Shown here in pieces: positions 14,719 through 36,306 of a stretch of DNA of 64,000 nt. Source of the stretch: Candidatus Curtissbacteria bacterium. Its GTDB lineage: Bacteria; Patescibacteriota; Microgenomatia; Curtissbacterales; GWA2-41-24. The stretch spans positions 18,000-81,999 of the forward strand of contig JACPEV010000003.1 of assembly GCA_016183325.1 (NCBI GenBank), given 5' to 3'. Both the position numbers and the translations under genes were made by a program. Below the pieces are notes generated by a model. The model was not told where the DNA came from and did no database searches. It was given only the letters and a program-made list of their open reading frames with translations. Position 1 is the stretch's first letter. Each line of letters opens with the position of its first letter.

Positions 14719-15569
14719 GGGTAATACCTGATTTTAGCCACTAGAATCAGTAATCTTTTTCAGTATTCGCTTTACCTGTTTTTCTGTATCCATATTGCGA
14801 TAATTGTATCGCCAAACATACTCTCCCAAAAAGAGGGGAAGATATTTTCTTCTCACTCCTCCTTTGGCGGCCAGTTTTCTTTTAAGATAACCCCAAAAGC
14901 CTTCCAGGCCATTGATATGATTCTTGCCTCGAACGTATTCTCTTTCCCCGTGTTTGACTGTTCTATGAACATAACCTTTAGCAGCCAGTCCTGTATATGC
15001 TCTCCAGGTGTCGGAGCAGATCCTAGAACCAACTTTAACTCTCCTGGTGATAATTGGCAACAAATCAATGGCTTCTGTGTCATCAACCAGCTTGGCAAAC
15101 ACCTTGCCATGACGGGTTAAAATACCGAAGACCGGTTGTTTTGTTGTTCCGAATCCTCGTTTGCTTTCTGCCTCTTTTCTGAGTTGGTTTTTCCGTTTGT
15201 TTTTCTTTTGACCACCAAGATAAGTTTCATCTACTTCGACTGTTCCCGAGAAAACCCTTGGTACATCTCTGGCCATCACCTTTCTGGTTACCATTACGGC
15301 TTTCTCTACTGAATAATGGCTGATTCCTGTTTGCCGGCAGATGGTTTTGATACTGTGTCCCAGTAAAAACCATAACAAAACCTTGTACCAGTTTCTCCTG
15401 GTTAACCCCAGGCCTCCCAGTTTTGGTTTCCACTCATAAAGACAGTTTTTGCAACGCTTTTTACCCCGTCTGACCGAGTAAAGATGTCTGTTTTGGCATC
15501 TAGGGCAAGAATAACCCTTCATAACAACCTAATTCTAACATTGTTAGTGGCTGTTTTCAGGGATTACCC
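14719..15569 (-). mobile_element. IS1595-family insertion sequence (851 bp)
   Basis: Imperfect TIRs GGGTAATACCTGATTTTAGCCACTA / GGGTAATCCCTGAAAACAGCCACTA; 7-bp target duplication TATCTTT (14712-14718, 15570-15576). Confidence 0.92.
14734..15522 (-). CDS. IS1595-family transposase
   Basis: CxxC zinc ribbon, VEVDETYLGG, SDTWRAY, HINGLEGFWG, EYVWRYN. Confidence 0.95.
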   Translation of the reverse strand: MKGYSCPRCQNRHLYSVRRGKKRCKNCLYEWKPKLGGLGLTRRNWYKVLLWFLLGHSIKTICRQTGISHYSVEKAVMVTRKVMARDVPRVFSGTVEVDETYLGGQKKNKRKNQLRKEAESKRGFGTTKQPVFGILTRHGKVFAKLVDDTEAIDLLPIITRRVKVGSRICSDTWRAYTGLAAKGYVHRTVKHGEREYVRGKNHINGLEGFWGYLKRKLAAKGGVRRKYLPLFLGEYVWRYNYRNMDTEKQVKRILKKITDSSG

Positions 15570-17398: not shown

Positions 17399-19357
17399 TT
17401 ATTCTTTGACGACTTCCCCTTCTTCTACGTCACCGGTTTTGCCGGACTTTGATCCCGGGCCTTTTGAATCGTCTGTTTGACCATCAGTAGGTTGACCTTG
17501 GGGCTGATTTTGATCGTCTGCTGGTTGACTCTGGCTGGCGCCGGGCTGACCCGCTTCGCCACCAGGCGAGCCGTACATTGATTGGCCTATTTTGGAAAGG
17601 ACACTGGAGAGTTCTTCGGTTTTGGCTTTAACTTCATCAATGGGACCGGCTGCTTGGATATCCTTAAGTGCCTTGATTTTTTCCTCGACTTCGGTCTTGA
17701 CTTCAGCGGGAACCTTGTCGCCGGCATCTTTGAGCGCTTTTTCGGCTTGATAGACAAGAGCATCTGCTCTGTTTCTGGTTTCAATCTCTTCTTTTTTGGC
17801 TTCATCTTCCTTGGCATGTTCCTCGGCTTCTTTGGTCATTCTGTCGATCTCGTCTTTGGTGAGACCGGTTGAACCGGTGATCTTTATTGACTGTTCCTTA
17901 CCTGTGGCTTTGTCTTTAGCCTTAACATTTAGGATTCCATTGGCGTCAAGATCAAAGGTGACTTCAACTTGAGGAATACCGCGGGGTGCCGGAGGAATGC
18001 CATCTAGGATAAATCGGCCGAGTGATTTGTTGTCGGCGGCCATCGGACGCTCTCCTTGGAGAACATTAATTTCAACAGACGTTTGATTGTCCGATGCGGT
18101 TGAGAAAACTTCGGATTTTGATGTAGGAACGGTAGTGTTTCTTTGAATCAGTGCGGTTGAGACACCGCCAAGAGTTTCAATTCCAAGAGTTAGCGGCGTG
18201 ACGTCCAGGAGAACCATTTCTTTCATCTCGCCGCCTAAAACTGCTCCTTGAACTGCGGCACCAACTGCCACAACTTCATCCGGATTGATGCCTTTGTGAG
18301 GCTCCTTGCCAAAAAAGTCCTGAACTTTTTGGGTTACCAGAGGCATCCTGGTCATACCGCCAACTAGAACAATCTCGTCAACTTTACTCGGGTCAATCTT
18401 GGCATCTTTCAGACAAGCTTTCACCGGACCGAAAGTTTTTTCGACAAGATCGCCGACGATTGATTCAAGTTTAGCTCGCGAAAGTTTGGTTGCAAGATGC
18501 TTTGGGCCGGTTTGGTCGGCGGTTAGATATGGAATCGAGATTTCCGTTTCGAGTGTAGTTGAAAGTTCAATTTTGGCTTTTTCAGCTGCATCACGAAGTC
18601 GTTGCAGCGCAGGCCTGTCCTTTGAAATATCCATACCAGATTCCTTGTTAAACTCCGTGGTCAAATACTCCACAATTTTGGCGTCGAAATCATCACCGCC
18701 AAGATGGGTATCACCATTGGTGGCTTTGACTTCAAATACACCTTCGCCCAGTTCCAAAATAGAGATATCAAAAGTGCCGCCGCCAAGATCGTAAACCGCA
18801 ATAGTGTGGGCATGAGATTTATCGAGACCATAGGCAAGGGCAGCAGCGGTTGGCTCGTTGATAATTCGCTCAACCTGAAGACCGGCAATTTCACCTGCTT
18901 GCTTGGTGGCTTGCCTTTGGGAATCGTCAAAGTAAGCTGGGACGGTAATTACTGCTTTTTCCACTTTGCCTCCAAGATAGGCTTCGGCGTCGGCTTTGAT
19001 TTTTTGCAGGATCATGGCGGAAATTTCTTGAGGAGTGTAATCTTTGCTTTCGACAGAAACGACGGCCATACCTTCACGGCCCGCTTTGATGTCATATGGA
19101 AGCCACTTAATATCTCTTTGAACTTCAGCGTCTTTGTATTTTCTGCCCATCAGCCTTTTTATAGAAAAGATAGTGGTTTTAGGGTTAACAATCATTTGAC
19201 GTTTGGCAACATCACCAACGATATGTTTTGTCGGATCCACCACAGATGGGATGATATTTCTGCCTTCTGCCGAGTGGATGACTTTAGGCTTTCCGCCCTC
19301 GACAACGGCTACTACTGAATTTGTTGTACCTAAATCAATACCTATTATTTTCGACAT
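17399..19357 (-). CDS. dnaK: Chaperone DnaK
   Basis: [36 protein letters not shown]. Confidence 0.99.
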
Positions 19358-20906: not shown

Positions 20907-20944
20907 TTAGCAGACAATGTACCACGAGTGCTAATCGTTGTCAA
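20907..20944 (-). promoter_or_regulatory. CIRCE operator overlapping the sigma70 promoter of hrcA
   Basis: TTAGCACTC-N10-GTCTGCTAA on the minus strand; TTGACA-N17-TACATT. Confidence 0.85.
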
Positions 20945-21033: not shown

Positions 21034-21519
21034 CTAGACTCCAAAATATTCGAGAATATAATTTTTACCATCTGATCTCATTTTGGATTTGTGGATTTTG
21101 AGATTTTTCTTTTTCTTGAGAAAAAAGGTCTCGATCATTCTGTAGTCGCTGGGCACAGCATGAACTTTTATCTTTGGCAGTTCTTTTTTAGTAAACCATC
21201 TGACTTCACCTTCATTTTTAGTTTGGGCAGTATTCTCTTGGGCTCTTGTTTCGCAAACCCAGATCATAAAATGACCAATTTTTGATTTTCCCTTATAAAG
21301 AATCTCCTCGACCGCACCTCGAAGGGCAATAAATTTGATATCAAGACTGCTTTCTTCTTTTATTTCACGAATAATTGCTTCTTCAATCGTTTCGCCGTAT
21401 TCCATTTTGCCGCCCGGCAAACACCAAAGTCCAAAGTACGGCTCCTTGATTCTTTTGATCAGAAGAAATTTATCTTTATAAATAACCGGGGAAGCAACTA
21501 TGTTTAGGATTTGATTCAT
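21034..21519 (-). CDS. NUDIX hydrolase
   Basis: PGGKMEYGETIEEAIIREIKEES Nudix box; probable start at MNQIL. Confidence 0.9.
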   Translation of the reverse strand: MNQILNIVASPVIYKDKFLLIKRIKEPYFGLWCLPGGKMEYGETIEEAIIREIKEESSLDIKFIALRGAVEEILYKGKSKIGHFMIWVCETRAQENTAQTKNEGEVRWFTKKELPKIKVHAVPSDYRMIETFFLKKKKNLKIHKSKMRSDGKNYILEYFGV

Positions 21520-21555
21520 GGCAATTTCCACAATACCATGATACAATTGTATTGT

Positions 21556-21810
21556 ATGGATTATATCACTACTAATGTTAGGTTTCATAAAGAAGAGTAC
21601 ATGCGGCTAAAAGAGGAGGCGGCAAGAACTCGGAAGAGTTTTTCTGCTATCGTGAGAGAAAAAGTGCGTTCTAAAAGGAAAAAGCTGTCTAAAGCAGAAG
21701 TTGATAAGATAATGGCAGAAACTGAAAAGTTAGCGAGAGAGATAGGTAAGTATACTAAGGGATTTGATTCGGTTAAAGCCTTAAGAGAAATTCGATATCA
21801 TGATAGATGA
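21556..21810 (+). CDS. Antitoxin (RHH-like)
   Basis: Small ORF overlapping the PIN gene; ends in DSVKALREIR. Confidence 0.75.
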   Translation: MDYITTNVRFHKEEYMRLKEEAARTRKSFSAIVREKVRSKRKKLSKAEVDKIMAETEKLAREIGKYTKGFDSVKALREIRYHDR

Positions 21811-22226
21811 TAATCGTCGATGCTTCTGTCGCCAACAAACTTTTTTTGACTCACGAATCAGGATATAAGCAAGTTAAAACAATCTTCAGGAAGCATGTTA
21901 ATGACACTGAAAAAATCCTCGTTCCAGATCTTCTTTTCTATGAAATAGCTAATACACTAGCCACGAAATTAATGGTTCCCAGTGTAAAGATCGGTTTGGC
22001 TCTGAACCAACTTGATAAATACGACCTTGAGATTTTTCGGTCTAGTTTAAAAGATATTTTCAAAATTGCTGTTTTTGCAAAAGAATTCCACGTTTCAGTT
22101 TACGATGCAACATATGCAGTTCTAGCAAAAGAAAAAGGTTGTGAATTGATTACTGCCGATGAGAAATTTGTGAAACAAGTGAATTTGTCTTTTGTCAAAA
22201 GCTTGCAGGATTATTCAGATGTGTAA
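21807..22226 (+). CDS. vapC: PIN-domain (VapC) toxin
   Basis: IIVDASV, SVYDATY, LITADEK. Confidence 0.9.
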   Translation: MIIVDASVANKLFLTHESGYKQVKTIFRKHVNDTEKILVPDLLFYEIANTLATKLMVPSVKIGLALNQLDKYDLEIFRSSLKDIFKIAVFAKEFHVSVYDATYAVLAKEKGCELITADEKFVKQVNLSFVKSLQDYSDV

Positions 22227-22287
22227 AGCTATATCATCCCCGAGGGCGTGAAGTTATTCGGCGTTTTTTTAAATATTCGAGGCTAAA

Positions 22288-22315
22288 TACTCTAATACTC
22301 TAGAGTATTAGAGTA
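22288..22315. repeat. 28-bp palindromic site P1 TACTCTAATAC-TCTAGA-GTATTAGAGTA
   Basis: Perfect palindrome; variants at 25004, 26326, 27299 and 28471. Confidence 0.9.
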
Positions 22316-22435
22316 ATAAAGATAATCATAAAATTACAAAAGCTAGATTTCTTCATTATCCCGACTCGCCAAGCTATTCCAAACCCGGTTCGGAATACGT
22401 TGGCGAGTAAGGTGAGTTCTGCAATTTCTGAAAGT

Positions 22436-22590
22436 TCAGGCGGGTACGGGAGCGTTTGATGCTATCAAACCTTCATCCTTAAGCTCTGTCCATAATTCTA
22501 CAGGAATCGGAAATTTCACCATTTGGAAATTTTCCTCCGCTTCTTTTGGAGTTCTGGCGCCGGGAATTATTGCCGCAACTGCAGAATGGA
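22436..22590 (-). pseudogene. Aldo/keto reductase, C-terminal fragment
   Basis: HSAVAAIIPGARTPKEAEENFQMVKFPIPVELWTELKDEGLI..PVPA*. Confidence 0.75.
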
Positions 22591-22819
22591 CTTCTCCGCT
22601 TCAGTGTCGGCAGGGCGAGGGCCAAAAAACGAAAGACCCCAGACAAAGAATACCGGGGTCGGCGCGGGTTGGCACGCTAGTTTCTCCGCGGCTTCGGCGG
22701 CTGCGTTTTCCTCAGCTCGGGGCCGAGGACGATGTCGGAGGGCTGTACGAGCCATTAGGCACCCCTTGAACAAAGGATGCCCCTATTATAGGCTTTTCGA
22801 ATGAACCGTCAAGAAGCTA

Positions 22820-23494
22820 CTAAGGGATTTGTTGTGATTTACGCCTCTGGCGTTGGTTTGTGCCGACGTAGTGCTCCACAGCGTTTCGATCCAAGAACCA
22901 TTGCAGCCCGCGCTTCACAGCCGGCAACTTACGGCGTCGTATCAGATAGGCGACGTTGGTGGGGTGACAGCCGAGGATTTCAGCTGCCTCCGCGATCGTA
23001 ACCGTCGCAGAGGGAGACGCGTCTGTTAGCTCCTTCAGCGAAGCGGCATCTACGACGTTATGGAGCTCCTCGACCGCTCCGTTCGTAAAGATGTTGACTC
23101 TTGTGCGTCGCCGATTGGCATTGCACTCAATGGAAAGAACTGCCTGAGCATGCTTAGGCTGGTAACCTGCCGCTATTCTATCTACCGTGTACTCGCGCGA
23201 TTGAGGGTCAAAGGTGCCGGCAATAAACTGTAGCCTGACAAGCCTATCATCAGGATGCACTTGTACGTGAACGGGCGGATCCCCTTCGTTGCCTAGCCTC
23301 CAAACGTAGCCCTTCCCAAAGGACGGATGCTCAAATGCTTCGGCGTCTGTCCCTAATACTGCGTTCACTGCCTCTACCAGAAACGGCTCTCCAGGCCGCC
23401 ACAAACAATGGAGTCCGTCGGTTTCACGCTCTGCAACGGTCGGGTCGGCCGTAACGGAGCTGCGGGTGCCTGCTATTCTCTCCTGGCTGCTCAC
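22820..23494 (-). CDS. Protein with C-terminal excisionase-like HTH (HTH_17), within a high-GC insert
   Basis: VTIAEAAEILGCHPTNVAYLIRRRKLPAVK..WF; GC visibly much higher than the flanks. Confidence 0.7.
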   Translation of the reverse strand: MSSQERIAGTRSSVTADPTVAERETDGLHCLWRPGEPFLVEAVNAVLGTDAEAFEHPSFGKGYVWRLGNEGDPPVHVQVHPDDRLVRLQFIAGTFDPQSREYTVDRIAAGYQPKHAQAVLSIECNANRRRTRVNIFTNGAVEELHNVVDAASLKELTDASPSATVTIAEAAEILGCHPTNVAYLIRRRKLPAVKRGLQWFLDRNAVEHYVGTNQRQRRKSQQIP

Positions 23495-23637
23495 AACTCG
23501 TATGATTATACCATGGCGCCGTGTTAGTAACGGTAACGAAAGGTGGGATGAAACGGCGGGGGGAGTGACACGCTCCTAAATTTCGTGTAACATGCACATG
23601 TAACGCGGATCAGGTAGTGTTTGGATCGGAGACCCTC

Positions 23638-23856
23638 ATGATCCCTCGGGTGACCATCGACGACATCGCCAGCGACACGAGGCTCTCCCGCAAGACCGTG
23701 TCCCTAGCTTTGCGTCACGACCAATCTGTTGCTGCTGCAACACTCCGTCGGGTCCTAGACGCGGCTGAGCGTCTCGGCTATACACGTAGCCGAGCCGAAA
23801 CGGCGCTCCTTGGGGTGGTGGTCCCTTACTTCAATCATCCGTTCTACTCCGAGTAA
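23638..23856 (+). pseudogene. LacI-family regulator, N-terminal fragment
   Basis: VTIDDIA...SRKTVSLAL...AERLGY...NHPFYSE, cut at the junction with the AKR gene. Confidence 0.8.
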
Positions 23857-24069
23857 TGTTTCGGCTTGTCCGAGCGCGTACTTTGGGGCGGTATCGAAAT
23901 AATTAACTCCCAATTTTAAAGCTGTTTTGACTTTACCAATGGTTGCGGCTTCATCCGGGTTCTCAAAATCCAAAAGGCCCGTTCCTAGGCCAAGGCGGGT
24001 AACAAAAACTCCGGTTTGACCAATTTCTACTTTTTGGGTGGGGACGAAAGAGGATTTAGGTCTTTCCAT
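23850..24069 (-). pseudogene. Aldo/keto reductase, N-terminal fragment
   Basis: IGQTGVFVTRLGLGT...GVNYFDTAPKYALGQAETLLG. Confidence 0.85.
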
Positions 24070-24175
24070 ACCGAGCAATTATACATCAGGAAGGTTTTTA
24101 AATTTTTAAAACGGTTAAGAATGCTTCTTAGGAGTTGTCCCTCTCACTTTAAAGCTTCGGAGGGCAAGCGACTTA

Positions 24176-24592
24176 TTACTTATCAATCCCGAATCGTTTG
24201 AATTTATTTGATTTATACTGCTTGTCAAAGCTAAAAACTGTATCCAGACCTTTTCCTTTTAGAATTGCCATATTAACACAGTCTGTGAAACGTGAGTTTT
24301 TGGACGTTTGTTTTTTGAAAAGCTCCAAAGCAGAACGCCTGAGAGCAGCATCAACTTCGATAATTTCCATTTGGCTTGCAAGAATTTCTTCTGCAAATTC
24401 TATCGCTTTATTTAAACCGACTTTTTGACTGATAATTGTCACTGCTTCTCCAAAAGCAGGGTCTGAAGTGAATAGTAATATAGCCTGTTCATCTACAAGA
24501 TTACTTAACTCTATTGCTTTTGAGTGGCTTGAATCTTCTATGGTGTTGAGTGCGACAAAAGCATCAGCGTCGACGAGAAGTTTTTTGATCAT
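24176..24592 (-). CDS. vapC: PIN-domain (VapC) toxin
   Basis: LLVDADAF, FTDCVN, VFSFDK. Confidence 0.9.
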   Translation of the reverse strand: MIKKLLVDADAFVALNTIEDSSHSKAIELSNLVDEQAILLFTSDPAFGEAVTIISQKVGLNKAIEFAEEILASQMEIIEVDAALRRSALELFKKQTSKNSRFTDCVNMAILKGKGLDTVFSFDKQYKSNKFKRFGIDK

Positions 24593-24905
24593 TTAGAAAA
24601 CGCTCCAGCCTCTTTTCTTCTGCTTTTGTTAATGTAGTGGTTCTCTTATCCTTACCGTACTTGGAAGATTTTTCTCCGTAAAGATAACTATATAAATTAG
24701 TAGAAAGATCCTTGGGGCCATGGCCTGCATTAGCAGCTAATCTCAAAAGGACGGCCCCAGGATTTTCCTTTTTTCGTTTTTCAATATTAAGACTTTTTTC
24801 CAGAATATTCCTGACAACTTCGGCTGTGGTTTTGCCATGCCTGCGGGCTTCGATTACGAGTTCCCTTTCAATTTCCGGAGTTAAATAAAGCTGTTTTCTG
24901 ATCAT
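24564..24905 (-). CDS. RHH-type antitoxin
   Basis: MIRKQLYL start; paralog of 1512-1766; TACAT repeats upstream. Confidence 0.8.
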   Translation of the reverse strand: MIRKQLYLTPEIERELVIEARRHGKTTAEVVRNILEKSLNIEKRKKENPGAVLLRLAANAGHGPKDLSTNLYSYLYGEKSSKYGKDKRTTTLTKAEEKRLERFLNDQKTSRRR

Positions 24906-25003
24906 GTATACATTATACATCATACATTTATTGTAGCGTGTTGTCAAATTTTGAGCACGGCTAAGAAGGCTTCTTGGGTAATTATTAAACATTCTAGGCT
25001 AAA

Positions 25004-25031
25004 TACTCTAATGATCTAGATTAATAGAGTG
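25004..25031. repeat. Palindromic site P2 TACTCTAATGA-TCTAGA-TTAATAGAGTG
   Basis: Overlaps the stop codon of the GNAT gene. Confidence 0.85.
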
Positions 25032-25566
25032 AAGACTCCATTAACCAAGAATCTACTTTTTTGCCTTCGTGCTGTTCGTGATTCTTGAGAATTTTGATTT
25101 TCTTGAAACCGGCTTTTTCGTAGGCTCGAATAGCTCGGGGATTATCGACATGAGGATCAGTGACAACTTTTTTGCCTTGTAGTTTTTTAAAAATGTGGTC
25201 GGTGATCATTTTAAGAACTTGTGGTCCGATACCCTTGTTCCAATATTCAACTTCTCCAATATACATATCCACCGCCCAGATGCCATTTGTATCATCCAAT
25301 TCGTAGTCTTTTGCTTTGATAACCGGATAATATTGAATGTACCCAATTTCTTTGTTGTTGTAGGAAAAAAAACATGGAACAATTTTGTTTTTGCCAAGTA
25401 CCCTTGGGCTATATTTTCTTTTGACCTTAGAAAGATATTGCGGGTTGGTACGACCGCCGTAAAATTCAAGAACTCTTTTGTCTGTTAACCATTTAGCAAT
25501 CTGCCTGTAATCGGATTCTTTATCCTCTATTTGCCGAATTTTTAACTGGCCTTTTTTGAGAAGCAT
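25021..25566 (-). CDS. GNAT acetyltransferase resembling AAC(6')-Ie/Im
   Basis: KWLTDKRVLEFYGGR, IGYIQYY, DMYIGE..YWNKGIG, DPHVDNPRAIRAYEKAGF. Confidence 0.75.
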   Translation of the reverse strand: MLLKKGQLKIRQIEDKESDYRQIAKWLTDKRVLEFYGGRTNPQYLSKVKRKYSPRVLGKNKIVPCFFSYNNKEIGYIQYYPVIKAKDYELDDTNGIWAVDMYIGEVEYWNKGIGPQVLKMITDHIFKKLQGKKVVTDPHVDNPRAIRAYEKAGFKKIKILKNHEQHEGKKVDSWLMESSLY

Positions 25567-25574
25567 ATAAACGG

Positions 25575-26267
25575 TTAGTTCAAATCGTATTTTCCTATAA
25601 TTTTTGTTGAGCTTGGGTGACATACTGAATTTGTGGTAATAAGACAAATTGTCCTGACCGATAACTTCCCAACTTCAACAACTTTTAACTTTTTAATTTT
25701 TTCTAAGAAAAGATTGCTTGGATGGGTAATATATCGGCAGACCGTAATGTTACCGAAAAAGATTTCATCCGATTCGTAACTTTTATTGTCTGGAACGCTT
25801 GCTTTGATTAAATTTTTTCTTAAATCTAGAACTAAATCTTTTAATGAATCATTTGAATAACATCTGATTCCAAGACTGGTTGGGAGTTCGAATAAACCTT
25901 TCACTGTGAATTCTAATTCTTTATGCTTCGGGATTATTTGATCAAAAGCTGTTTTTGCTTTTTCGACGTCCTCATCTGTAAATAACGGTGGATCACTAAT
26001 CGTTCGAATATTTTGAATAGTTAAATGAAGGCTTCGTGGTAGGTAAAAATATTGATTACTGTCTGCTTCTCTGAGAGGTTCAATAATTTTGGAAACAATT
26101 ATTTTTTGAAGATTTTCGGGAATAAAAATAACACTGGTTAAACCAATGCGGTTATCATTTGCATAATCTGCGACAGGTTCAACTATAGTTGTAGGTATTT
26201 TACCTTGTTTAAACTTTCCCTCAAGTTTTTCAAAAAGTTCAAATTGCTTCTTTTGATACGAAATCAT
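25575..26267 (-). CDS. 2H phosphoesterase / 2'-5' RNA ligase-like protein
   Basis: SLHLTIQ motif; second motif degenerate (NITV). Confidence 0.6.
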   Translation of the reverse strand: MISYQKKQFELFEKLEGKFKQGKIPTTIVEPVADYANDNRIGLTSVIFIPENLQKIIVSKIIEPLREADSNQYFYLPRSLHLTIQNIRTISDPPLFTDEDVEKAKTAFDQIIPKHKELEFTVKGLFELPTSLGIRCYSNDSLKDLVLDLRKNLIKASVPDNKSYESDEIFFGNITVCRYITHPSNLFLEKIKKLKVVEVGKLSVRTICLITTNSVCHPSSTKIIGKYDLN

Positions 26268-26325
26268 GAGGAAATTATATCTTAAGCATCGCCAGAAAGA
26301 ATTATTGGAGAATTCCTAAGCTAAA

Positions 26326-26353
26326 TACTCTAATACTCTAGAGTAATAGAGTA
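26326..26353. repeat. Palindromic site P3 TACTCTAATAC-TCTAGA-GTAATAGAGTA
   Basis: One mismatch to P1. Confidence 0.9.
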
Positions 26354-26371
26354 AAGAATCCAAGCACTTAA

Positions 26372-26947
26372 TTATGCGAACGAAATGGCAAGGACTATGA
26401 GCATACTTGCAGCAAAGCCGAGCGCTAGTTCTGCCAGAGAATGATGCTCGAGTTGCATGCGAGCCCAACTGATAACTCCCACTAGCGGAAGCGCAATAGC
26501 GTATTGTCGGCCATAGACCACAACAAGTCCGATAACTACGGCCGCAAATACGGCTACATGAAGGCTTGCCTTGATATACAAGTTGAGAATGGTAAAGGCG
26601 AACAAACCAGCTAGCATCATGTAAACAATAAGGCTGAGGTTTTGTGTGAATGACAGGGCATTCATTTCAATGATAAGTATCGGGGTTAGTACCGAAGCAA
26701 CCACAAACAAATAAATCCGCCTTTCCTTACGTTGCGTGACAAAGAGATCGGAGATTATGCCCATCTTCGACATTACAATCTGACATACAATGGGGATCAT
26801 AATAGTTGGAAAGACCAAAGCAATGATCGCAATAATAGCAGAGAAAAAGCTGAGACCTTCGTTATGGATTGCAACTAGTAGCCCACAGAAGCCAACAATT
26901 AATGGGTGAGAAATTAGTGATATTGCTAATGCAATGCGTCTTTGCAT
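26372..26947 (-). CDS. PAP2-like integral membrane protein
   Basis: K.SLH and WAR..L.HH..E motifs; multiple TM helices. Confidence 0.7.
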   Translation of the reverse strand: MQRRIALAISLISHPLIVGFCGLLVAIHNEGLSFFSAIIAIIALVFPTIMIPIVCQIVMSKMGIISDLFVTQRKERRIYLFVVASVLTPILIIEMNALSFTQNLSLIVYMMLAGLFAFTILNLYIKASLHVAVFAAVVIGLVVVYGRQYAIALPLVGVISWARMQLEHHSLAELALGFAASMLIVLAISFA

Positions 26948-26960
26948 TGGGTTTATTTCT

Positions 26961-27254
26961 TTAAATTTTTAATACAGCCAAAAACGCTTCCTGGGGAATA
27001 TCAACTTGGCCAAAGCGGCGCATTCTCTTTTTGCCTTTTTTCTGCTTCTCAAGTAGTTTCATTTTGCGGGTGACGTCGCCGCCGTAGAGTTTGGCGGTGA
27101 CGTCTTTGCGGTACGAGGCGATTGTTTCTCGGGCGATGATTTTGCCGCCCGGCAAACACCAAAGTCCAAAGTACGGCTCCTTGATTCTTTTGATCAGAAG
27201 AAATTTATCTTTATAAATAACCGGGGAAGCAACTATGTTTAAAATTTTGTCCAC
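26961..27254 (-). other. Chimeric ORF: NUDIX 5' head fused in frame to the lepA 3' tail
   Basis: ILNIVASP...LPGGK identical to the 21034-21519 protein; IIARET...FLAVLKI identical to the LepA C-terminus; junction in shared ATTTTGCC. Confidence 0.9.
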
Positions 27255-27298
27255 AAAGTATGGGAGAATTATATCCTACGGGCAATTTCGAATCTAAA

Positions 27299-27326
27299 TA
27301 CTCTAATGATCTAGATTATTAGAGTG
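27299..27326. repeat. Palindromic site P4 TACTCTAATGA-TCTAGA-TTATTAGAGTG
   Basis: Overlaps the stop codon of the CYTH gene. Confidence 0.85.
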
Positions 27327-27860
27327 AGATTTAATTGATTTTTTTAAAATTAAATCAAGATTTGAATCTTTGATGATTTTGTCTAAATAAGGTAGAAATT
27401 TTTGCTTGTAGAAATTGAATTCTTTTTCGGATTCTTTTGAATTTTTGGTCGTTTCAATCTCGAAAATTTTGCCGACAGTTAATATATTATCTAGATTGAA
27501 GATTGTATTGCCTTTTTTCCAAAGCTCGCGTTTTTTGTAAACAGTAGCTTTAATTCCTAAAACTTTTTTCAGATATGGTAAAAGTTTTTTATCTTTTACA
27601 GAAAGTAGGCTTACTTTTGCTTGGTTGCTTTTGTTTTCTTGAAAAGCTCTTCTTTTGTAATAAATTATGGTTTGTTTCCCTTTCTGTATTCTTAATTTAA
27701 GTCTTGGATGGATCTTGATATCCGATTGAGGTAAGTTGAAAAAGTAATCTTTTTGAAAAAAAGTTCCAACTTTCTTGGCATTTAACTCTTTTAGAATTTT
27801 CCTAATTGGAGAAAAATCGTTGCAAAAATACTTCAGCTCGAGATTAACTTTATTTTGCAT
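27303..27860 (-). CDS. CYTH-domain protein (CyaB-like)
   Basis: NLELKY, QKDYFF, RLKLR, KKRELW, FEIE. Confidence 0.8.
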   Translation of the reverse strand: MQNKVNLELKYFCNDFSPIRKILKELNAKKVGTFFQKDYFFNLPQSDIKIHPRLKLRIQKGKQTIIYYKRRAFQENKSNQAKVSLLSVKDKKLLPYLKKVLGIKATVYKKRELWKKGNTIFNLDNILTVGKIFEIETTKNSKESEKEFNFYKQKFLPYLDKIIKDSNLDLILKKSIKSHSNNLDH

Positions 27861-28421
27861 CTAGAAAGTCAGATTTTGGTACATTAATATTTGATCGATA
27901 AATTTGTCCCGGTGGACTATTCCTTTTGGAAGCACACCATATTTTTTAAACCCGAAGTTTTTATACATTTCAATCGCTATATTATTGTTTGCATAGACAA
28001 CTAGCGTGACAATTTTTAGATTGAAGAGATTTTTCCCTGCTTCTTCTAAAATTTTTTCTGTTAAAAGTTTCCCGATGCCTTGATTTCTAAATTGTTTGGC
28101 CACCGAAATGCCAAAATCACCAACATGTGTTTCAACTCTTTCTCTAAGTGTTATGTTTGCGATCCCAATTAAGGCCTTTTGGGAGTAGGCCAAGATGTGA
28201 ATATCTTCATTTTTATTCATTTTATTAAGAACGTTATCTAAATATTTTTTTTCTTCGTCAACTGTTAGTTGTTGTCCTTGGAAACTGATATACGTACGCT
28301 CTTTTGAAAGCGTGTTGATGTAATTTAAAAGATCTTTGAGATCATTCGCTTCGGGGTAACGTAAAACAATTGGGAGACCGTTTTTAATTTTGCCTTCGAA
28401 GATAATTTGTCCTGGTTGCAT
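27861..28421 (-). CDS. GNAT acetyltransferase
   Basis: HVGDFGISV..FRNQGIG, NNIAIEMYKNFGF. Confidence 0.88.
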   Translation of the reverse strand: MQPGQIIFEGKIKNGLPIVLRYPEANDLKDLLNYINTLSKERTYISFQGQQLTVDEEKKYLDNVLNKMNKNEDIHILAYSQKALIGIANITLRERVETHVGDFGISVAKQFRNQGIGKLLTEKILEEAGKNLFNLKIVTLVVYANNNIAIEMYKNFGFKKYGVLPKGIVHRDKFIDQILMYQNLTF

Positions 28422-28470
28422 AAATAAGATTATATCCTAAGCTGTCGCTTTAGAAGATTTCTAAGCTTAA

Positions 28471-28498
28471 TACTCTATTACTCTAGAGTAACGGTAAT
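28471..28498. repeat. Palindromic site P5 (right arm degenerate)
   Basis: TACTCTATTAC-TCTAGA-GTAACGGTAAT. Confidence 0.75.
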
Positions 28499-28670
28499 TT
28501 GTACTTTTAGAATCTCGACTCGCAGAGCTATTCCAATATTCCAAACCGGGTTTAGAATACGTTGGCGAATAAGGTTGGCTCTGCAATTTCTGACAAAATT
28601 CCTGTGAACTACATCACTTCCGATGTGTGTTTGTTGACAAAGTGGTTCCGATATTATAGGATATGTTCCT

Positions 28671-29192
28671 ATGGCTAACGTCGAACAAGACCCAAACTCA
28701 GGAGAGGCCATTATAGTTGATCCAAGATCTCGTGCTGAGTTCTGGGCTTCACAGGGTATTCCCTTTGCCACTCACGAATTTGCGATTTATGCAAATCTTG
28801 CTGAACAAGAAAGAGACTCTTTAATGACGGAGGCTCATTTGAATGCGGCTGAGAGAGCTAAAAAGTTGTCTTTGCAGGAGATAACTGACATAAAAACTGG
28901 GCCTTTTGAAACAACTCCAAAGGACGTTCAGTGGGCTGATTATTGGACCCGAAGAGTCCTAGGTATCGCTGATTATTCTGGATTTGGCTTATCAAGAAGG
29001 CAAGTTCTAACTAACCTGTTTACAAGAGACGACAAACTTGGAAACGCGGCCAGAGAGACATTTATTACTGCTTGGGAGTCTTTGGTAACCTATTTGAGAA
29101 CGGCAACAGAGCAAGCAAAACCTGAGACTCAAGCCCACTTAGAACTAGCGAAATACTTGCAACAAAGATCCGAACAAAGAGGAACTATCTAA
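28671..29192 (+). CDS. Hypothetical protein
   Basis: 173-aa ORF with ATG start; no recognised motif. Confidence 0.65.
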   Translation: MANVEQDPNSGEAIIVDPRSRAEFWASQGIPFATHEFAIYANLAEQERDSLMTEAHLNAAERAKKLSLQEITDIKTGPFETTPKDVQWADYWTRRVLGIADYSGFGLSRRQVLTNLFTRDDKLGNAARETFITAWESLVTYLRTATEQAKPETQAHLELAKYLQQRSEQRGTI

Positions 29193-29243
29193 TCTTCAAA
29201 ACTCTATTTATCATACTCTGTAGTATGGTATTAAAGTGATTTA

Positions 29244-31115
29244 TTATATTTTTAATACAGCTAAGAATGCCTCTTGGGGAATATCTACTTGCCCAAAACG
29301 CCTCATTCTCTTTTTGCCTTTTTTCTGCTTCTCAAGTAGTTTCATTTTGCGGGTGACGTCGCCGCCGTAGAGTTTGGCGGTGACGTCTTTGCGGTACGAG
29401 GCGATTGTTTCTCGGGCGATGATTTTGCCCGCCCCCTTCGCCGAGGCTACGGAGGCCGAGCCGATGGCCGCCTGAATCGGTATAGGAATTTGTTGGCGAG
29501 GAATGGCATCTTTTAGTTTTTCGCAAAGTTTTCGGGCAATTTCTTCCGCGCGCACTCGCGGCACTATTTGGGACAGCCCTTCTATCGGTTCGTGGTTAAC
29601 CAGAATATCAAGTTTAACAAGATCGGCCGGGCGATAGTCTGCTATTTCAAAATCTAATGAGGCATAGCCCGAGGTTTGTGACTTGAGCTGATCATAGAAG
29701 CCGATTAAAAGTTCAAGAAGGGGAATTTTCGCTTCTATTTTTAAAAGATTGCCGATTGTTTCAAAATTTTCTTGCTCTCCCCTTTTATCGGTGATAAGCT
29801 TTGACACTACTCCCGAATAAGCCTGAGGAACAAATATCGTAACGCTGGCGATGGGCTCTTTGACGTTTTTTTCAGTCGGGTCAAAATCGCCGGCTTTGTT
29901 GATCAGTTTGTCGTTAACAATGAAATTGACAGAGGGAGAAGTTGTAATGATGTCCAGATCGTATTCACGCTCAAGGCGTTCTTGGGTGATTTGAGCATGC
30001 AAAAGTCCTAAAAAACCAATTCTGAATCCTTGGCCAAGACTGATGGAAGATTCTGTGGTGAAGCTAAGCGATGAATCATTTAGTTTGAGTTTTTCGAGTG
30101 CATCTTTGAGTTTGACAAGGTCTTTGGGGTCTGAGGGGTAAAATGACAGGAAAACAACAGGTTTGGCCGCTTGATAACCAGGAAGTGGTTGAGCCGGCGA
30201 TTTGGGATCGGTGATAGTATCTCCAACTTTTACTTTTGATAAATCTTTAAGGTTAGTTACAACAAAGGCGATCTCCCCGCTGGTTACGTTTTCGACGAAG
30301 TGGGGTTTGGGGGTAAGATAACCTATTTGCAAAATGGTGGCCTTGGCATTCGGGTTGGCCAAAAATAAAATCCGGTCCCCCACATTTATTCTGCCTCCAA
30401 AGACACGGACCGTTGCAACGACACCTTTGTAAGGGTCTAGGGAAGAATCGAAGATTAGTGCTTGGGGTTTGCTCACCCCCGGGGAGCCAGAGCTCACCCC
30501 GGGGGTGTTGCCTGGCGCAGGAATGCGGTCAATTATTGCACGAATAACTGCTTCGACACCCTCGCCGGTTCTGGCGGAGACTTTGATGATTTCTTTTTCG
30601 GAAAATCCAAGAGAGACCAGTTCTTGTGCCGTCTTTTCAATTTGAGCTTGTGGCAAATCAATTTTGTTAATCACCGGAATAATAGTTAAATTGGCTTCAA
30701 GGGCAAGATTAAAATTGGCCAAAGTTTGAGCTTGGATTCCCTGAGTTGCATCGACTACCAGAACTGCGCCTTCTACAGAAGCAAGTGATCGTGAAACTTC
30801 GTAGGAAAAGTCGACGTGGCCGGGAGTATCGATCAAATTCAAAACAAAGTTTTGAATTTGAGGTGAATCGTTAATGGTTAATGGTTCATCGGGAGATTCT
30901 TTTTCAATACGATTAACGATAAACGATGAACGATACACTAATCGTATGGCTTTCAACTTAATGGTGATGCCGTGTTCGCGCTCAAGCTCTAGGCTGTCGA
31001 GAAGTTGTTCTGGGTGATTTTGATCAACTGCACCGCAGATTTCCATGATACGGTCGGCAAGAGTCGATTTACCGTGGTCGACGTGGGCGATGAGGGCAAA
31101 ATTACGAATTTCCAT
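29244..31115 (-). CDS. lepA: Elongation factor 4 (LepA)
   Basis: [41 protein letters not shown]. Confidence 0.98.
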   Translation of the reverse strand: MEIRNFALIAHVDHGKSTLADRIMEICGAVDQNHPEQLLDSLELEREHGITIKLKAIRLVYRSSFIVNRIEKESPDEPLTINDSPQIQNFVLNLIDTPGHVDFSYEVSRSLASVEGAVLVVDATQGIQAQTLANFNLALEANLTIIPVINKIDLPQAQIEKTAQELVSLGFSEKEIIKVSARTGEGVEAVIRAIIDRIPAPGNTPGVSSGSPGVSKPQALIFDSSLDPYKGVVATVRVFGGRINVGDRILFLANPNAKATILQIGYLTPKPHFVENVTSGEIAFVVTNLKDLSKVKVGDTITDPKSPAQPLPGYQAAKPVVFLSFYPSDPKDLVKLKDALEKLKLNDSSLSFTTESSISLGQGFRIGFLGLLHAQITQERLEREYDLDIITTSPSVNFIVNDKLINKAGDFDPTEKNVKEPIASVTIFVPQAYSGVVSKLITDKRGEQENFETIGNLLKIEAKIPLLELLIGFYDQLKSQTSGYASLDFEIADYRPADLVKLDILVNHEPIEGLSQIVPRVRAEEIARKLCEKLKDAIPRQQIPIPIQAAIGSASVASAKGAGKIIARETIASYRKDVTAKLYGGDVTRKMKLLEKQKKGKKRMRRFGQVDIPQEAFLAVLKI

Positions 31116-36081: not shown

Positions 36082-36306
36082 ACTTGTGTAATTATACAAA
36101 AATGCCCCAAGTTTCGTCAGTTGCAGGAATTTAAAGAAGTAAACTATACAAATTTCTGACGATCGTCAAAGAACAGTATAAATTAAATTTGATACTATGA
36201 TTCGAATCATTAGAACAATTGCTGCTAAACAAATCCAGCAATTTAATAATAAAACAATAGAACAATTATTATAATCTATAAATTTGAAGAGGGAGAAGAT
36301 ATTAGT

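Follow-up and report, generated by a model that had tools for sequence, protein, structure and literature searches.

Probable orphan sites of TrpR-like proteins in an integrase-less accretion array at the 3′ end of lepA in a Microgenomatia genome

Small genes flanked on both sides by their own palindromic repeat, with which they co-evolve, are known from the Ssn/NTS-SRM and RAYT/REP systems (REP, repetitive extragenic palindromic), where the repeats also occur as dispersed solo copies in variable regions and a subset of them carries a one-sided flank (PMC11893778). As described for HisR (YerC/YecD), a regulator with the PF01371 fold of TrpR, this protein binds 20-bp palindromes through the second helix of its helix-turn-helix (HTH) motif, where variable residues are found, and often autoregulates from a site upstream of its own gene (PMC9413887). 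Toxin–antitoxin (TA) and accessory cargo can also be punctuated by 28-bp pdif sites of 11-6-11 geometry with no integrase nearby, in which the XerC arm differs from the XerD arm, spacers vary and neighbouring sites are inverted (PMC13141974). Cis-mobilizable elements (CIMEs), in turn, are integrase-less segments that stack up where a conserved gene ends and that duplicate its tail (PMC5704250). The array described here shares features with each of these systems. It consists of five 28-bp palindromes and the genes between them, in a window of 64,000 nucleotides from a Candidatus Curtissbacteria genome of the Microgenomatia (Patescibacteria or Candidate Phyla Radiation, CPR; 1.21 Mb, 95% complete), namely positions 18,000 to 81,999 of contig JACPEV010000003.1 (C4:18000-81999 of genome G000 in our numbering, where L marks loci). 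In our reading, to which we give a probability of about 0.62 as a whole, the palindromes are orphan sites of TrpR-like proteins that have been copied as units and now stand in an accretion hotspot at lepA.

The array occupies the region between lepA (29244-31115, minus strand) and hrcA-grpE-dnaK-dnaJ, all names except lepA being taken from translations. A previous reading of the letters alone (hereafter the sequence-only reading) had reported the five palindromes, and their existence was borne out: its pattern matched without mismatches at 22289, 25005, 26327 and 27300, for an expectation of 0 from shuffled sequences (n = 100), and the fifth copy, at 28471, reached 43.7 bits with a profile made from the five sites themselves. 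As had been proposed, all of them are exactly 28 bp long and lie in the same orientation, which is given by a one-sided flank, and the TCTAGA centre is invariant; distances between successive sites are 2716, 1322, 973 and 1172 bp. The site at 22288-22315, of the AC..GT subtype and with its 7-nt flank on the left, is a perfect palindrome with 14 of 14 arm pairs, whereas 13 are kept at 26326-26353 (AC subtype), 12 at 27299-27326 (GA subtype) and 11 at 25004-25031 (GA subtype). The shared consensus fits these four sites exactly but not the one at 28471-28498, whose right arm is decayed; likewise, the supposed co-variation of the arms holds for AC..GT alone, since the bases of GA..TT are not complementary. 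Two sites do overlap the stop codon of the preceding gene, that of a GNAT gene (25021) lying inside the site at 25004 and that of a CYTH gene (27303) being provided by the site at 27299.

The identity of these palindromes is suggested by relatives of this bacterium, in which pairs of palindromes about 450 bp apart enclose a gene for a 145-aa protein of the PF01371 (TrpR/YerC-like) family. A matched pair (at least 19 of 26 positions) was found at 48 of 70 TrpR-like loci with full flanks versus 4 of 600 control open reading frames (ORFs), three of these four looking PaaX-like by sequence, and again at 35 of 47 new full-flank loci. Each TrpR-like paralog has its own site variant, with the upstream palindrome of the pair at or just ahead of the start codon. 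Four of the window sites agree at 25 to 26 of 28 positions with the bracketing sites of a single clade (L045-L050/L052): the site at 22288 with both sites of L050 (25/28), that at 25004 with the downstream site of L048 (26/28), that at 26326 with L050 (26/28) and that at 27299 with L046 (26/28), while the decayed copy at 28471 keeps 20/28 to L050. The recognition helix of this clade reads VS[N/G/T]ET, and seven genomes carry it, six of them with a matched pair of at least 21/26. The structural model of the clade has the TrpR/HisR fold (pLDDT 81; structural matches 3KOR, 3FRW and 3G1C), and in the TrpR-like proteins we found this fold only and no nuclease, GIY-YIG or HUH domain. An IS200-like tnpA between the paired sites was discarded as a candidate, the enclosed gene being TrpR-like.

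Protein and site are further tied by a simple rule, by which base 3 of the half-site can be predicted from residue 77 (numbered as in L045), the one after the ‘VS’ that opens the second HTH helix: K, R or Q go with G; T, L, V, M, F or Y with T; and small or acidic residues with C. In-sample agreement was 45/53, after two rows without the conserved T9 had been dropped and with three probably mis-centred rows kept as misses. Out of sample, with I joined to the hydrophobic class (no instance occurred) and all other residues assigned to C, the rule held in 26 of 37 cases, compared with a mean of 13.0 and a maximum of 23 in 10,000 shuffles; the prediction of G from K, R or Q was right in 4/4, three times against the nearest training protein. 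Judging from fold and covariation, the TrpR-like protein very probably binds its flanking palindromes. It is also highly likely that the five window sites are operators of the TCTAGA clade, a role that the sequence-only reading had listed as an alternative and that is now the best-supported identity. They would be orphan operators: the four TrpR-like matches of this genome are all from outside the TCTAGA clade (best 41% identical to it), and at the usual junction of the clade galE runs straight into the next gene; no DNA remnant was found. The cognate gene was not found in this 95%-complete assembly, so the five sites are orphans in it.

With respect to HisR and TrpR, the proteins discussed here are of about 145 aa with a C-terminal extension, their site is of 28 and not 20 bp, a second copy stands behind the gene, and a genome can hold several paralogs that differ in their sites, one variant to each. 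Among the loci read, no his or trp operon was seen beside the TrpR-like genes, and solo sites occur in junctions and in coding sequence. Free movement of the TrpR-like module was considered and rejected, given that its clades mostly stay at conserved loci.

Solo copies are scattered through this and other genomes, in a manner like that of REP or NTS repeats. The sequence-only reading had named dispersal of its motif over the genome as evidence against recombinase sites, and dispersal is what the scan revealed, with a TCTAGA-type site at C27:27402 and four TTTAAA-type sites on C14, C19 (two) and C28. A wider-family profile gave 16 sites of at least 18 bits in this genome versus 0 in five Markov nulls, and the combined pattern occurs in 16 of 101 genomes, this one included. 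Among five single-contig genomes, the family consensus had 9 matches in G115 and 2 in G246, all of the type of the resident gene, and no match in G035, G094 and G089. The genomes of G035 and G094, which might have served as empty counterparts of the G115 solos, stand too far from G115, at about 72%, for junctions to be compared; the module locus of G035 holds a decayed 5′ stub of a TrpR-like gene and no palindromes. In the window itself, a degenerate sixth copy had been suspected at about 29200-29237, and none had been seen elsewhere. The suspected copy belongs to another site family (29206-29233, minus strand, between convergent genes), at 23/28 to the upstream palindrome of the TrpR-like gene that this genome carries on C26 and with further copies at C4:7035, C12:1120 and C20:62595, and a related site of another type exists at 36190.

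Some side observations belong here. The site at 36190-36217 and one at C18:51316 are both solos and share a further TrpR type, for which no gene was found in the assembly. An ACTAGT-centred type brackets the TrpR-like gene at C4:96853 and has five solos (C2:34294, C21:11670, C25:37935, C25:51652 and C26:30311). At L159:1458, L167:1433, L161 and L174 there are 5′ stubs of an ITPase-like gene, and in two genera a differing TrpR-type palindrome begins at the same point of the stub. Nine genes for PaaX-like proteins (winged HTH plus a Cas2-like domain), an unrelated family, are present in this genome (C8:7469, C9:8967, C12:23168, C14:1206, C19:1103, C22:31047, C18:53185, C26:30967 and C4:152680), at least 4 of them bracketed by their own matched palindrome pairs. 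A related-locus search returned 2 loci.

Another line of evidence concerns the way in which these sites arise. Where two copies stand at one gene, their identity is limited to the 28 bp. In such pairs the direct comparison beats the inverted one by 30 to 7 (18 ties), and by 16 to 6 (15 ties) in a second set, and palindrome-breaking pairs are shared with the same bases in 57 of 90 cases in direct versus 18 of 90 in inverted orientation (25/41 versus 5/41 in the second set), a bias to which the directionality of promoters may contribute. Of 26 genomes compared at the tsaB upstream junction, 7 carry one solo, of 3-4 types, the gene being present in none, and in many other genomes stop and start overlap at this junction. 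For recA, the upstream region of 32 loci was compared: 6 are filled, 1 has a solo and 22 have no site, the rest being 1 edge case and 2 loci too short; the galE junction is filled in L030 and has a solo in L128. The tsaB junction (L177-L202) also gathers other kinds of repeats, one in L179/L180/L197 and another in L184/L188.

Even coding sequence is affected. In this genome, in-frame palindromes of TrpR type (C17:5186, C13:21026, C18:42835, C15:22059 and C20:62595) fall within cysS, a cysS-like gene, miaA, sufC and rsmI, names again from translations. A single 28-bp codon window of cysS holds a TrpR-type palindrome in 10 of 30 genomes (L376-L405), and an eleventh, with a low profile score, in G014, with no length change in 29 of the 30 alignments. 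Compared with the site of the resident gene, the cysS site agrees at 28/28 positions in G026 and at 27/28 in G001. Genomes with the palindrome are spread over the cysS tree (8 changes, versus a mean of 9.0 in shuffles). The native cysS codons at this window already resemble the palindrome core, so strong selection together with quasi-palindrome correction could also have produced these sites. Taken as a whole, the results suggest that the sites are copied, or made alike, in units of 28 bp and are not the product of point mutation.

A plain regulon would need no copying, its copies being operators or transcription roadblocks under selection that are perfected by quasi-palindrome correction and would serve autorepression, the insulation of accessory genes or the repression of cysS and other genes. 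As expected from such operators, the upstream copies extend over promoter-like sequence and start codons, and in G001, G023 and G026 the cysS site agrees with that of a resident paralog. Tandem binding of TrpR has an 8-bp stagger, and the flank of the window sites can be read as a third degenerate 8-bp repeat. Such a repeat fits the tandem binding of TrpR as described for PDB 1TRR, and HisR, the nearest characterised relative, is itself an often autoregulatory binder of palindromes (PMC9413887). We nevertheless hold the plain regulon to be rather unlikely, because it leaves aside the sharing of palindrome-breaking bases in direct orientation between paired copies and the replacement of one type by another at the same junction and codon window. 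Several sites also lie between convergent genes (22288, 29206, L022 and L025) and many are orphans. Moreover, none of the promoter-like or terminator-like matches of a scan overlaps any of the five sites. Intrinsic terminators and sigma-70 promoters were rejected as identities of the sites on the same grounds, none of the listed matches overlapping any of the five; the counts are near shuffle levels (24 versus 18.2 ± 3.2, and 9 versus 9.2).

For palindromes copied as units, the closest working analogue, by likeness of arrangement, is Ssn/NTS or RAYT/REP, with the differences that the gene here has a TrpR fold and that some copies replace coding sequence without a length change. A more literal explanation would be that the sites are hairpins of REP or NTS type, moved by one of the HUH (Y1/RAYT) transposases or small nucleases of the genome, and that the TrpR link is a case of hitch-hiking. 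The genome does contain six Y1 transposase genes, and other repeat families occur at the same junctions as the palindromes. RAYT-type REPs adjoin two of the window sites, 22288 and 28471: a REP-like hairpin at 22364-22408 matches the repeats flanking the Y1/RAYT-type gene at C14:55840, and a decayed second copy of the REP-like unit is found at 28512-28593 (88% identical to 22358-22431). The one-sided flank is also as in the NTS described in PMC11893778. The Y1 genes, however, are flanked by repeats of their own that differ from the palindromes, and the covariation of residue and base ties the site to the TrpR-like protein, which makes such movement a highly improbable origin for the array.

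The 11-6-11 geometry had led the sequence-only reading to suggest XerC/D recombinase sites of dif or pdif kind. This identity was not upheld, the two arms being alike and the sequence tracking TrpR-like paralogs and not the host recombinase. The arms of our sites are mirror images around a palindromic centre, unlike the distinct XerC and XerD arms of the pdif sites described (PMC13141974), and the five sites share one orientation and always the spacer TCTAGA, where those pdif sites are inverted and vary in their spacers. As for dif, the family consensus is absent from 3 of 5 single-contig genomes, the consensus being the sequence tested and the true dif of the group not having been identified; solos that track the resident paralog and are missing from these genomes are not a universal dif. 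A comparison with the predicted dif had been suggested too: a dif-like pattern picked up none of the five sites and gave seven one-mismatch matches, none of them convincing.

In a relaxed version of the same idea, a host recombinase like XerA or XerC/D would recombine the 11-6-11 sites, excising and shuffling cassettes as well as the TrpR-like module, and the protein would do no more than guard or select the sites. It would account for the exact 28-bp bounds with the highest identity in the centre, for the filled, solo and empty states of one locus (recA, galE), for the shuffled order of modules near galE/rfbA and for some breaks of homology at site edges, and a Xer-like recombinase is encoded on C26 (220.7 bits versus a XerA cut-off of 220). 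Many site types coexist in one genome, however, with two tyrosine recombinases only, the in-frame copies in cysS and miaA are hard to explain as excision scars, and the scars of the array are lepA tails (see below). Together with the mirror-image arms and the single-contig genomes that lack the consensus, these points leave the relaxed version unlikely. The second tyrosine recombinase (C22:10917-11789, L002) is possibly atypical, since its HxxR reads DLRH in translation, with the first His replaced.

Integron arrays have an integron integrase and attC sites, which combine R and L boxes with extrahelical bases. An integron or attC origin, including clusters of attC sites lacking an integrase (CALIN), was rejected: no integron integrase is present, the scores of the two recombinases, 111.9 and 65, falling far short of the cut-off of 265 for this family, and the sites are perfect 28-mers without an Rfam match of note.

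The insertion target is the 3′ end of lepA. Four further copies of this end lie on the minus strand within the array and had been overlooked in the sequence-only reading, together with a NUDIX::lepA fusion and the two RAYT-type REPs. The longest (26961-27146) has 186 nt, 175/186 identical to lepA with 10/11 differences at third codon positions, and is fused in frame, through a short microhomology, to a 5′ fragment of a NUDIX gene (27139-27247, minus strand) that is 98% identical to 21404-21512. The others are a decayed tail of 33 nt directly ahead of a 2H gene (26275-26307), one of 39 nt ahead of an RHH-PIN pair (24944-24982) and one of 35 nt ahead of a broken aldo-keto reductase (AKR) gene (24098-24132). 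The NUDIX fragment joined to a lepA copy points to a tandem fusion of two allelic versions of the hotspot. Across the hotspot, tails measure mostly 33-45 nt, also about 78 and 186 nt.

On the minus strand, the site at 25004 is followed by flank, linker and lepA tail, and that at 26326 by an 18-nt linker and the decayed tail, the tails starting after 18-27 nt; the sequence after the other three sites may consist of decayed lepA tails as well but fell short in a test for them. As a general rule, a site followed by the copy of an upstream gene end was clear at 1 of 23 sites (25004; local alignment versus shuffles), with three further scores weak or marginal, and the tail at 26275 was detected through the lepA pattern alone. 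Some units do end beside sites, as had been claimed. CYTH, site and flank are common to the window and to G014, where an identical 28-mer ends a CYTH gene of 68% identity; homology stops 5 nt beyond the site, and CYTH orthologs without a site end earlier. The proposed breakpoints at TCTAGA were not found, the visible scars being the lepA tails 18-27 nt beyond a site.

The lepA-hrcA interval was compared in 22 relatives (20 fetched plus L025 and L029). Its cargo varies among them and is drawn from a common pool of CYTH, NUDIX, 2H, ITPase-like, TA and methyltransferase genes; in G001, the gene right after lepA is a 2H homologue, an arrangement mirrored by the tail-plus-2H unit of the window. Of the relatives, 6/22 have tails of lepA; in none of the six does a TrpR-type palindrome stand immediately before the tail, and in two a different repeat family precedes it. 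TrpR-type palindromes occur in 4/22 intervals as single copies of three types. The array is a genuine accretion hotspot at the 3′ end of lepA, integrase-less as the sequence-only reading had supposed, with its scars in the lepA tail and not in TCTAGA. Islands of the CIME kind have a duplicated target-gene end (attL/attR), a fixed crossover point and a related integrase-bearing element. They differ in that the tails here range from 33 to 186 nt with one microhomology junction, and no integrase-bearing relative was noticed in the ORF lists of the 22 intervals, on which no family scan was made. The varied tail lengths and the microhomology junction also fit homology-facilitated illegitimate recombination.

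The assembly was compared with contigs of sequencing runs (contigs only, from 4/5 runs, 3 of them possibly from the source). Positions 21477-27050 are on one contig of run X1 and, among the matches listed, no contig joint falls at a palindrome and no piece bridges the NUDIX::lepA junction. In X1 and X2, the depth drops between the NUDIX repeats, whereas X4 gives a mixed picture.

These observations can be arranged in a provisional model. Foreign segments, each made of a donor lepA end, cargo, site and flank, would have been added at the 3′ end of lepA, so that with every addition the previous lepA end came to lie further downstream as a tail of 33-45 nt, and one larger block would have been joined by microhomology to give the NUDIX::lepA fusion; tails and fusion are seen directly, and the order of events is what we infer from them. 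Sites would mark the far end of several segments, with the crossover in the lepA tail and not in TCTAGA. It is possible, if doubtful, that the sites are self-propagating operators of the Microgenomatia, a non-catalytic protein of TrpR fold pairing its 28-bp site with look-alikes and host recombination or repair then copying the site. Such copying could run over look-alikes even inside essential genes (cysS) without changing their length. In hotspots such as lepA, sites occupied by the protein might in addition set the far end of incoming DNA; this would account for an array that has no integrase and yet is punctuated by a single site type.

Several points weigh against our reading. In the protein–site analysis, the top mutual-information pairs lie partly outside the recognition helix, and the tree-independent residue–base pairs are too few for significance (1-4 supported). 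A clear tail stands behind just 2/5 sites, and the tail at 24098 has no site. Five well-kept copies without their protein need explaining. Among the tsaB solos, 3/7 match a paralog in the same assembly, and the cysS sites of G012 and G014 mismatch their resident paralogs. The one-sided flank is found on 15 of 52 solos versus 1 of 145 gene-adjacent sites, so the array sites form a subclass, and this flank is the leader of one TrpR-like gene only, the frameshifted L299. Finally, no enzyme that would do the copying was found.

For the Patescibacteria, where few regulator–site pairs are known and no cassette system is described in the literature searched, the array is now tied to a protein–DNA family that follows a simple recognition rule and offers about 90 natural protein–site pairs, and a pdif-like system is no longer needed to account for it. 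If copying is true, a plain repressor fold would drive the spread of repeats and sequence change in essential genes; to our knowledge, neither is known for TrpR or HisR. If it is false, we have an ordinary accretion hotspot strewn with orphan repeats. New here are the array of orphan sites of one type at lepA, the homogenisation as direct repeats, the switching of types at fixed junctions and the replacement within cysS; no description of these CPR sites was found in the literature searched, although the supplements of PMC9413887 and PMC11893778 could list such sites.

The cargo had been described as typical of cassettes. Read from lepA, it begins with a 173-aa ORF convergent with lepA (28671-29192, plus strand), for which a family scan gave no family. 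On the minus strand follow a GNAT acetyltransferase (27861-28421), the CYTH-domain protein (27303-27860), a PAP2-like membrane protein, which is a lead only (26372-26947), a 2H phosphoesterase or 2′-5′ RNA ligase-like protein (25575-26267), a second GNAT, distantly AAC(6′)-Ie-like (25021-25647; 140.7 bits versus a cut-off of 340), and a FitA-like RHH antitoxin with its PIN toxin (24176-24992). Another pair, of an RHH-like antitoxin and a PIN toxin, is on the plus strand (21556-22226), and a full NUDIX hydrolase (21034-21588, minus strand) is the last gene ahead of hrcA. The description thus stands for the two GNATs, CYTH, both RHH-PIN pairs and the 2H-like protein, but not for the AKR (22436-24078, minus strand), which is broken by a GC-rich insert. 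Its N-terminus lies near 24078 and its probable C-terminus, from translation, at 22436-22600; the foreign insert between them (22601-23860, GC 0.52-0.58) carries an ORF with an excisionase HTH (22820-23494) and a fragment with a LacI HTH (23617-23856), and shares a contig with its flanks in runs X1 and X2. Beyond the array, an inverted repeat upstream of hrcA (20911-20937) is presumably CIRCE-like, and an IS1595/ISXO2-like transposase gene (14734-15522) adjoins dnaJ.

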